Shown: positions 15,001 to 17,368 of the stretch, piece after piece | Layout: every line of letters begins with the position of its first letter | Position numbering within the stretch: position 1 is the first letter of the stretch | Assembly (NCBI RefSeq): GCF_045037415.1 | Contig: NZ_CP173438.1 | Length of the DNA stretch: 64,000 nucleotides | Strand: one strand, 5' to 3' | Origin: Escherichia coli | GTDB taxonomy: Bacteria; Pseudomonadota; Gammaproteobacteria; Enterobacterales; Enterobacteriaceae | Made by a program: the position numbers

Positions 15001-17368
15001 AAAGCGGGATATCGCCTGGTGATGCTAACCGGGGATAACCCGACCACCGCCAATGCGATCGCCAAAGAAGCAGGGATTGATGAGGTGATAGCCGGCGTGC
15101 TGCCAGACGGTAAAGCCGAAGCGATCAAACGTCTGCAAAGTGAAGGACGTCAGGTGGCAATGGTAGGCGACGGCATTAACGACGCGCCAGCGCTGGCTCA
15201 GGCGGATGTCGGTATTGCGATGGGTGGCGGCAGTGATGTTGCCATTGAAACCGCGGCGATTACCCTGATGCGCCATAGCCTGATGGGTGTTGCGGATGCG
15301 CTTGCAATTTCCCGCGCAACGCTGCGCAACATGAAGCAGAATCTGCTCGGTGCGTTTATCTACAACAGCATTGGTATTCCGGTCGCCGCCGGTATTTTGT
15401 GGCCGTTCACTGGAACACTGCTTAACCCGGTGGTTGCCGGAGCGGCAATGGCGCTCTCGTCGATCACCGTAGTGAGTAACGCCAACCGATTGCTGCGGTT
15501 TAAACCGAAGGAATAAGTACATCATTGCGGATGCGCTGCTTTAGGGTGGCGCATCCGTTATAGGGAAATTATTCTACGCGACCTTTTTTGCACGCTCTTC
15601 ACGGCGTGCCAAATATTCAGCCACTGTTTCAATCCGTCCCAATTCTTCCTGGGTACGCATGTTGTTTTCAACTTCCCAAAGATCAACTGCCGCCTGGAGG
15701 TTTAGCCAAAAATCGACTGTGGTATCAAAAACTTTCGCCAGACGGAATGCCATCTCAGTGGTGAGTTTACGATTGTTATTGATCAGTGCACTGACGCTAT
15801 TACGATGAACATGCAGCAACTCTGCTAACTCATTGATTTTCAAATCGAGCGGTTCCAGATATTCATAGAGAAGAATATCTCCGGGTGTCGTCGGTTTTCT
15901 TGTTGCCTGTTTCATAGTTTTACCTTTCTCGTCAATACGACAGCTATGTTTTAGTAGTTGTGTGGGTCTAAAAACAATTCTTCGGCCTTGCCATTAACCC
16001 ATTTAAAAATCAGTCGGTACTGTTTATTCACTCTAATGGAGGAGTATTCCTGTAATTTCCCGGATAACTCTTCGTATCGGTTCCCCGGAGGGGAGCGTAA
16101 ATCCCGATGAGAAGTGGCAGCATTAATGATGTCCAACTTTCGTGATAACGTGGTATGGATTTCAGCAGGGATCTTTCGATGTGGCGTTGAATGGACAAAA
16201 AAATCAGCCAACCAGGCATCACGAAAACTCCTTATATTTTTCTTTTGAGCCATTCCTCTCTCATCTCCTTGTCCATTATTTAATCATTGTAATGCACACA
16301 AGCACTGTGCACAAGTGCAACAATCAACTCCATTTGCGCCATCCCTCCCCGCGCGCTAGCATGATATTTCACAAAGGGAGGTCGTATGGATCTGTTGTAC
16401 CGGGTAAAAACGCTTTGGGCCGCGCTGCGCGGTAATCATTACACCTGGCCTGCTATCGATATCTCTCTTCCCGGCAATCGCCATTTTCATCTGATCGGCA
16501 GTATTCATATGGGTAGCCACGATATGGCTCCCCTGCCCACCCGTTTGCTCAAAAAGCTCAAAAACGCCGATGCGCTGATCGTCGAGGCGGATGTTTCCAC
16601 CAGCGATACGCCTTTTGCCAATTTGCCTGCCTGCGAGGCCCTGGAAGAGCGCATTAGCGAGGACCAACTCCAAAACCTGCAGCACATTAGCCAGGAGATG
16701 GGCATTTCTCCGTCGCTCTTTTCTACCCAACCGCTGTGGCAAATCGCGATGGTTCTTCAGGCGACGCAGGCGCAAAAACTGGGGCTGCGGGCAGAATACG
16801 GTATCGATTACCAGCTATTGCAGGCGGCTAAGCAACAACATAAACCCGTGATTGAACTGGAAGGGGCTGAAAACCAGATTGCCATGTTGCTCCAGCTCCC
16901 TGACAAAGGACTGGCGCTGCTGGACGATACGCTGACCCACTGGCACACCAACGCACGGTTGCTGCAACAAATGATGAGCTGGTGGCTGAATGCACCGCCG
17001 CAAAATAATGATATAACGCTGCCCAATACGTTCAGTCAGTCGCTGTACGATGTGCTGATGCATCAGCGAAACCTCGCCTGGCGGGACAAATTACGCGCCA
17101 TGCCGCCGGGGCGCTATGTGGTCGCGGTCGGTGCACTACACCTGTATGGAGAAGGGAATTTGCCGCAGATGTTGCGCTAAAAAAATGGCCAATATCGCTA
17201 TTGGCCCGTCAAAGAGGAATTTCATTTTTTTATTATTATGCCGTCACTTTAAGCGACGGTGTAACTCGATTGTCGCTCAATCTCACCATCCTGCCAATAC
17301 TCTTAGGCAAGATGACTCTTTTTTTTGGACCGCCATCAGGCGTATGCTTGCTTCGTTTTTTTGTTTAA

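Follow-up and report, generated by a model that had tools for sequence, protein, structure and literature searches.

A chromosomal HigBA-family toxin–antitoxin pair, higB-1/ybaQ, between copA and ybaP in Escherichia coli

The interval between copA and ybaP

In the 64,000-nt stretch of E. coli DNA analyzed here (hereafter the window), the core genes copA and ybaP flank two short genes of the opposite strand, the toxin gene higB-1 and the antitoxin gene ybaQ (Table 1), so that ybaQ and ybaP lie 470 nt apart. A preliminary description of this DNA had placed a 100-residue ORF 35 bp upstream of ybaQ on the same strand, and the ORF listing agrees with it in every detail; likewise, the toxin-first order that it regarded as characteristic of HigBA, with a HigA-like protein encoded downstream, is borne out by the order of the ORFs and by the match of YbaQ to TIGR02607 (see below). 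Both genes are already named as a toxin–antitoxin pair in RefSeq, where the higB-1 product is labeled 'type II toxin-antitoxin system RelE/ParE family toxin'. E. coli SK1144 (NZ_AP018784.2) is collinear with the window: over the first 50 kb, all annotated genes have identical coordinates. SK1144 also encodes the same two proteins at the same coordinates as the window. The GC contents of the pair genes are 42% and 45% versus 55–58% for their neighbors.

Table 1. Genes and predicted regulatory features of the higB-1/ybaQ interval (window coordinates).
Feature	Position	Strand	Remarks
copA	13012..15516	+	core gene flanking the pair on the ybaQ side
ybaQ (HigA-family HTH antitoxin/repressor gene)	15574..15915	-	113 aa; WP_000806442.1
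higB-1/ybaQ intercistronic spacer	15916..15950	-	35 nt; read from the sequence
higB-1 (toxin gene)	15951..16253	-	100 aa, ATG start, intact; WP_000057523.1; HigB/GraT subfamily of RelE-like toxins
T7 homopolymer run in higB-1	16197..16203	-	codons 17–19 (D-F-F); intact in the window
predicted sigma-70 promoter of the operon	16286..16314	-	-35 TTGTGC 16309..16314; 17-nt spacer; -10 TACAAT 16286..16291
operator-like half-site cluster	16293..16319	-	GTGCA/TGCAC; TGCACTTGTGCACAGTGCTTGTGTGCA; presumed YbaQ site
operator core GCACTTGYRCACNGTG	16303..16318	gene strand	conserved upstream of homologous toxin genes
ybaP	16386..17180	+	core gene flanking the pair on the toxin side

The two genes presumably form a single transcript: a scan of the intercistronic spacer predicted neither a promoter nor a terminator there, and a Shine-Dalgarno-like AAGG is found within it, 8 nt ahead of the ybaQ ATG. 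A plausible promoter for the operon, with a TTGTGC–17 nt–TACAAT layout, was recognized by visual inspection of the sequence and of an alignment of the upstream regions of homologues, which align as TTGYGC–17 nt–TAnnAT. A consensus scanner called no promoter and no terminator upstream of the toxin gene; it missed the predicted promoter because the -35 element matches only three of the six consensus positions.

The cluster of GTGCA/TGCAC half-sites, which overlaps the predicted -35 element and the promoter spacer, contains two inverted repeats located by script, TGCAC-tt-GTGCA and GCACT-n7-AGTGC. In 26 homologue loci from enterobacteria, its core occurs once on the gene strand, 50–95 nt ahead of the toxin gene, and this positional conservation suggests that the cluster is the YbaQ operator. 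In the 64-kb window, the core is also found once (1 occurrence observed versus 0.76 expected by chance when up to two mismatches are allowed). A generic repeat finder run on the region upstream of the toxin gene returned nothing useful, and the putative operator surfaced only through the comparison of homologue upstream regions. According to Rousset et al., the YbaQ motif is present in the promoter of higB-1 (bioRxiv 10.1101/2020.05.25.114553); a YbaQ motif was also obtained in K-12 by Gao et al. using ChIP-exo.

Family and fold of HigB-1 and YbaQ

A search with family models for HigB/RelE, as advised in the preliminary description, matched the HigB-1 sequence to Pfam PF05015 (HigB-like_toxin) across the whole model (i-Evalue 3e-32, 111 bits; toxin residues 9–98 against model positions 2–91 of 91). 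Searched against the PDB, the toxin finds GraT (6f8s_B, E 2.8e-15) as its best solved relative, followed by Proteus vulgaris HigB. In an alignment of 35 homologues, the window toxin keeps the residues of all 20 invariant columns, including H98 and Y100; R38, K39, R74, N76 and H98 are invariant in the 35 homologues, and R80 is kept in at least 90% of them. The ORF at 15951..16253 is thus a genuine HigB-family toxin gene and no chance reading frame. Note that the NCBIfam models returned sub-threshold scores only (YoeB, 19 bits for a cut-off of 52; RelE, 17 bits for a cut-off of 28); NCBIfam has no model specific to this toxin, and the family was fixed by Pfam and the PDB.

The AlphaFold2 model of the toxin, built with 35 homologues as input (mean pLDDT 88, pTM 0.79), comprises three helices followed by three strands, i.e. 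a predicted RelE-like microbial RNase fold. When this model was compared with the PDB by Foldseek, the top match was P. vulgaris HigB (E 4e-7, TM 0.80–0.89, rmsd 1.5–2.0 Å), whose superposed structures include both free and ribosome-bound forms; below it came, in order, GraT, RelE3, YafQ and YoeB. GraT is 41% identical to HigB-1 over the ordered core.

The GraT active site has been described as 'a cleft around His92' (PMC6393540). Its counterpart in HigB-1 is H98, which aligns to the last position of the PF05015 model, i.e. to His92 of the GraT/HigB active site. The HigB/RelE-type C-terminal signature announced in the preliminary description holds as far as this histidine is concerned, but not for its surroundings, the toxin ending in LDPHxY where Proteus HigB has DYH. 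In a pairwise alignment, the residues that we take to be Tyr91 and His54 of Proteus HigB face Pro97 and Glu61 of HigB-1, respectively, and GraT, like HigB-1, has no equivalent of the Proteus-type Tyr91 and His54. Since Pro97 and Glu61 replace these residues, the catalytic details may differ from those of the best-studied HigB.

YbaQ matches TIGR02607 (antidote_HigA; E 1e-30, 105 bits for a cut-off of 47.7), which makes it a HigA equivalog, and aligns without a single difference over all its 113 residues to PDB entry 2eby_A, a structural-genomics entry named 'ybaQ'. It is also related to GraA (6f8s_A, E 3e-10) and to further HigA structures in the PDB. The YbaQ protein is identical in the window, K-12, O157:H7 and toxin-carrying strains. 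The C-terminus of YbaQ is used as a ClpXP/ClpAP degron in synthetic biology (PMC2907309; PMC12239797), and a tail of this kind would suit an antitoxin that is readily degraded.

Distribution, inactivation and mobility

The distribution of the pair was surveyed in 5,426 complete E. coli genomes. The whole interval is present in 1,266 of them and the chromosomal toxin gene in 1,265–1,266, at an identity of at least 95% (about 23%), while ybaQ is present in 4,833 (89%); the survey therefore divides into genomes with the pair (about 23%), with an orphan ybaQ (about 66%) and with neither gene (about 11%). In K-12 C600, O157:H7 86-24 and STEC434, the toxin gene is absent and ybaQ is separated from ybaP by 137 nt, close to the 140 bp or so given for K-12 in the preliminary description; E. 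coli C shows the same spacing and also lacks the toxin gene. The ybaQ genes of the first three strains are 98.5–99.1% identical to that of the window at the nucleotide level. Thus, K-12 does not carry the ORF, identical or otherwise, beside a YbaQ that is 100% identical, and the view that the strain studied here keeps a toxin partner that K-12 lacks stands. So does the resulting description of the K-12 ybaQ as an orphan antitoxin, an idea already published in 2007, when RASTA-Bacteria classed K-12 YbaQ as a solitary antitoxin (PMC2374986). Furthermore, a 2018 bacteraemia study has higB-1 among the accessory genes (PMC6096937). A partial toxin match in strain HS-02 (88% identity) was set aside: its translation is dominated by lysine runs, which makes an artefact of assembly or of sequence quality probable.

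Not all carriers encode an intact toxin. In clone D i14 (from the ST73/CFT073 lineage), LF82 and ATCC 25922, the T7 run of higB-1 is 1 nt shorter, which breaks the reading frame, and RefSeq marks all three alleles as 'frameshifted'. The window allele, with its intact T7 run, matches the commonest allele at 100% identity, and 936 of 1,265 carriers are identical to the window over the 81 nt surrounding the run. Among the 329 remaining alleles, three of eight sampled rows span 80 nt instead of 81, from which we estimate, by even sampling of the rows as opposed to a full count, that about 10% of the carriers have the 1-nt deletion. If the toxin is costly, frameshifted toxin alleles beside an intact ybaQ are what one would expect to find.

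The genetic data of Rousset et al. provide indirect evidence of toxicity and neutralization: ybaQ was essential by CRISPRi in five of 18 strains, namely the B2 and F strains with higB-1, and non-essential in CFT073, where higB-1 is truncated; in strain S88, higB-1 was strongly induced upon ybaQ knockdown; the pairing in B2/F strains was supported by CRISPRi and RT-qPCR experiments (bioRxiv 10.1101/2020.05.25.114553). One could nevertheless imagine that the toxin gene, although intact here, is an inert, decaying remnant and that YbaQ is purely a transcription factor, given that inactivation recurs (the above frameshifts, as well as premature stops in the toxin representatives of Citrobacter portucalensis and C. 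koseri) and that most E. coli do without higB-1. We consider this highly improbable: the window carries the commonest allele, shared around the T7 run by most carriers, every invariant family residue is kept, and ybaQ is essential exactly where the toxin is intact and not in CFT073. The pair is real and most likely functional.

Outside this locus, 161 relatives of the toxin were retrieved when each species was represented by one genome. In all of the best 80 of these 161, a YbaQ homologue is encoded directly downstream on the same strand, and in none of the same 80 does copA or ybaP lie within 4 kb; the best 80 loci include contigs of Citrobacter, Kosakonia, Kluyvera and E. albertii and extend as far as Vibrio cholerae. 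Since toxin and YbaQ homologue go together in these loci, all of them away from copA and ybaP, the two genes behave as a mobile two-gene module.

Regarding the direction of change within E. coli, the K-12 allele is no clean deletion, as the 409 nt that comprise promoter, toxin gene and spacer in the B2-type allele are replaced by 76 nt. We considered whether the leader of the K-12 ybaQ is a decayed higB-1 promoter, but 135 of 2,000 shuffles reach the local alignment score, and this homology was dropped; when the 76 nt are compared with the whole 409 nt, the score is attained by 490 of 2,000 shuffles. Both the irregular replacement and the lack of significant similarity to the higB-1 promoter would suit a scenario in which the toxin gene was recently gained in B2/F strains beside a pre-existing stand-alone ybaQ. 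This scenario seems quite unlikely to us for the following reasons: (i) the orphan state of ybaQ looks derived, because YbaQ homologues are paired with a toxin in every one of the best 80 of the 161 related loci; (ii) ybaQ is orthologous across alleles, as judged from its nucleotide identity and from the identical protein in K-12 and O157:H7; (iii) the low GC content is common to ybaQ and the toxin gene, as expected of a module arriving as a unit; (iv) Rousset et al., who described higB-1 upstream of ybaQ, its absence from K-12 and the loss of both genes in phylogroup D, also conclude that the toxin was lost (bioRxiv 10.1101/2020.05.25.114553). We therefore favor a loss of the toxin gene from K-12-type lineages. 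As the similarity of the K-12 76 nt to the promoter is not significant, this direction of change is based on points (i) to (iii), which make it probable.

Close homologues are carried by mobile elements: the phage-plasmid D6 and about 92 plasmids encode a higB/higA pair 80% (at the amino-acid level) and 78% identical to higB-1 and ybaQ, respectively, and the operator core of the D6-type pair is closely similar to the chromosomal one. The toxin family thus moves with mobile elements, which, together with the GC difference between the pair and its neighbors and with the description of RelE/ParE-superfamily toxins as defence toxins (PMC11980606), might indicate that the pair works as described below but serves in anti-phage abortive infection or in the exclusion of related mobile elements, as opposed to mere selfish addiction. 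Such a role appears unlikely, although less so than the other alternatives considered here. In PADLOC-DB, the toxin matches no family and YbaQ has weak generic HTH matches only (E about 3e-3); the pair is flanked by copA and ybaP and by no defence genes; we found no report in the literature of a phage phenotype for this pair; and chromosomal toxin–antitoxin systems of Pseudomonas putida, GraTA included, are called 'rather selfish than beneficial' in PMC7280312.

The resemblance between D6-type pairs and their chromosomal counterpart suggests, without proving it, that these pairs may engage in cross-talk with the orphan chromosomal antitoxin. A further, unlikely reading is that the orphan ybaQ, which K-12 and about two thirds of all E. 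coli possess, owes its retention to an 'anti-addiction' or immunity role against the toxin of D6-type plasmids. If so, chromosomal YbaQ would neutralize the plasmid toxin and repress the plasmid promoter, cells would lose D6-type elements, or resist stabilization by them, without post-segregational killing, and higB-1, through its frequent T7-to-T6 slip, would offer a quick route from the addicted to the immune state. At any rate, the homologues on D6 phage-plasmids turn the retention of an orphan ybaQ by most E. coli into a testable question.

Proposed function and comparison with known systems

The above data support the interpretation of the two genes as a toxin–antitoxin pair put forward in the preliminary description. 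With a probability of about 90%, we propose that higB-1 and ybaQ form a chromosomal type II toxin–antitoxin operon of the HigBA family, in which HigB-1 is an mRNA endonuclease, YbaQ neutralizes it and represses the operon, and the K-12 ybaQ is an orphan. The corresponding scheme would be as follows: (i) a single promoter upstream of higB-1 would drive the joint transcription of toxin and antitoxin; (ii) free HigB-1, a ribosome-dependent mRNA endonuclease with a RelE fold, would enter the ribosomal A site and cut translated mRNA, mostly within A-containing codons, thereby arresting translation and growth; (iii) YbaQ, presumably a dimeric HTH protein, would bind HigB-1 and keep it away from the ribosome; (iv) YbaQ would also repress the operon through the GTGCA repeats of the operator, which overlaps the promoter; (v) YbaQ would be subject to proteolysis through its ClpXP-type C-terminal degron, so that its continuous synthesis would be needed, hence the essentiality of ybaQ where the toxin is intact; (vi) K-12-like strains would have lost the toxin gene while retaining ybaQ as an orphan.

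The present analysis establishes which genes are there, their family and fold, the conservation of residues and of the pairing, and the distribution among strains. The conditional essentiality of ybaQ and the derepression of higB-1 come from the literature, whereas how and where HigB-1 cleaves, how it is neutralized and what part proteolysis plays are inferred from characterized relatives. V. cholerae HigB-1 was shown in E. coli to cut translated RNAs only, and in frame (PMC2582610), while GraT cuts mostly between nucleotides 2 and 3 of codons with an A at position 2, and GraA neutralizes it by sterically blocking ribosome binding, leaving the active site uncovered (PMC6393540). By analogy, E. 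coli HigB-1 probably cleaves translated mRNA in a ribosome-dependent manner; our literature search found no direct assay of toxicity, neutralization or RNA cleavage for this protein. Note that classical conditional cooperativity should not be assumed, because in GraTA repression is due mainly to the antitoxin and is relieved by the toxin.

The higB-1/ybaQ pair as such is already known, both from its RefSeq annotation and from experiments published in 2020 (bioRxiv 10.1101/2020.05.25.114553). What the present analysis adds are the frequencies of the pair, of the orphan and of the empty site, the T7-to-T6 truncation, the conserved core of the putative operator and the connection with D6-type phage-plasmids. 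The locus shows, in textbook style, how an accessory toxin can decide whether a core gene, here ybaQ, is essential, and illustrates how K-12 annotation can mask the original role of a gene. In practice, deletion or knockdown of ybaQ is unsafe in B2/F pathogens, e.g. ST131 and ST95.

Compared with known systems, the pair described here does not differ in substance from the E. coli higB-1/ybaQ of Rousset et al. (B2 and F strains), with which it shares locus, genes and conclusion. The prototype of the family, HigB/HigA of Proteus vulgaris Rts1 (4MCT, 4YPB, 4W4G), has the same fold, the same Pfam family, a toxin-first operon and a HigA HTH antitoxin, but it is plasmid-borne and its toxin is only about 25% identical to HigB-1. 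K-12 also has a chromosomal HigBA system with the toxin first, HigB/HigA (ygjN/ygjM), which lies at a separate locus and probably belongs to a different subfamily. This ygjN-ygjM pair is listed among the RASTA predictions (PMC2374986). A further relative is HigB-1/HigA-1 of V. cholerae, from which the gene name higB-1 originates: its toxin is 54% identical and has the same LDPHxY end, and a YbaQ-like antitoxin is encoded immediately downstream, although that antitoxin is only 46% identical to YbaQ and the V. cholerae pair is a superintegron cassette, whereas the E. coli pair sits between core genes.

Finally, GraT/GraA of P. putida (6F8S) provides the closest solved relative of the toxin, with the same toxin-first order and a HigA-type antitoxin. 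GraT and HigB-1 share the motifs PPGNR-E-L-G and SIRVN-Q-R in addition to the C-terminal histidine active site. GraT has features of its own, namely its cold-dependent toxicity, its link to ribosome biogenesis and a disordered N-terminus that controls operator binding (PMC6393540; PMC7280312). In the region concerned, the AlphaFold2 model of HigB-1 predicts a helix (residues 13–21) where GraT is disordered. Moreover, GraA is reported to be unusually stable, unlike a labile antitoxin.

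Decay and probable loss of the toxin gene with retention of ybaQ

The HigB-type toxin gene upstream of ybaQ (higB-1) is broken or absent in some other E. coli strains. In clone D i14 (CFT073 lineage), LF82 and ATCC 25922, the same single-nucleotide loss shortens the T7 run within the gene to T6 and breaks the toxin; the presence of the T6 allele in these three strains may reflect either common ancestry or repeated slippage. In K-12-type alleles, a 76-nt segment lies upstream of ybaQ and does not significantly resemble the 409-nt stretch that it replaces. The loss of the toxin gene in these alleles is thus not a simple deletion but involves a replacement. 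Strain HS-02 presents a further anomaly, seen in one genome: similarity to the toxin gene is limited to the first 145 nt (88% identity), the translation of the sequence at the toxin position is lysine-rich nonsense, and the annotated ybaQ is extended at its N-terminus. We consider that this is probably a sequence or assembly error and not biology.

Toxin homologues are also interrupted in two Citrobacter loci, each from a species representative, with early stops (23 codons in C. portucalensis A60, L009, and 26 codons in C. koseri NCTC10786, L021). In both loci, the YbaQ homologue downstream aligns over its full 113 residues (tblastn), which suggests that decay of the toxin with retention of the antitoxin recurs beyond E. 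coli.

Variation on either side of the pair

The spacer between copA and ybaQ contains one 9-bp inverted repeat in the window (15528..15536/15549..15557). Its length rises from the 57 nt of the window to 113 nt in STEC434, 214 nt in O157:H7 86-24 and 315 nt in K-12 C600; these differences presumably correspond to the copy number of putative REP elements. Between ybaK and ushA, which we take to be adjacent in K-12, the window carries two overlapping ORFs. One, annotated as DUF6896, encodes 266 aa, and the other a hypothetical protein of 167 aa; neither product gave a match in NCBIfam or PADLOC. The GC content of this ORF pair is 43.7%, versus 51.9% for the window, and a survey of complete E. 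coli genomes found the pair in 774 of 5,426.

Coordinates of the features considered (SK1144, an E. coli strain collinear with the window)
Feature	Location	Strand	Remark
T7 run	window 16197..16203		inside higB-1
Segment upstream of ybaQ, K-12-type alleles	K-12 locus L001:1075-1150		76 nt; counterpart, window 15916..16324 (409 nt)
Toxin-position sequence, E. coli HS-02 (L007)	NZ_CP172818.1 506060..506330
copA-ybaQ spacer	window 15517..15573		57 nt; convergent genes
Two overlapping ORFs, ybaK-ushA	window 17887..19187	+
tomB-hha	window 44807..45425	+	another toxin/modulator pair; SK1144 annotation
End of type VI secretion tssD-family gene	window 1..443	-	SK1144 annotation
Pseudogene fragments either side of cueR	window 9312..9990 and 10395..10492		SK1144 annotation
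Homologous locus, Escherichia phage D6	MF356679.1 67514..67813
Plasmid higB/higA pair, pB2C_96	L008:2492-3203

Homologous pairs on phage-plasmid D6 and plasmids

A higB/higA pair is also carried by the P1-like phage-plasmid D6 and by about 92 enterobacterial plasmids, its HigB and HigA proteins being 80% and 78% identical to the higB-1 and ybaQ products, respectively. The operator core of the pB2C_96 pair, the sole plasmid locus inspected, closely resembles that of higB-1/ybaQ. It is possible that chromosomal YbaQ, including the orphan form of strains devoid of the toxin gene, could cross-neutralise or cross-repress the D6/plasmid pair.
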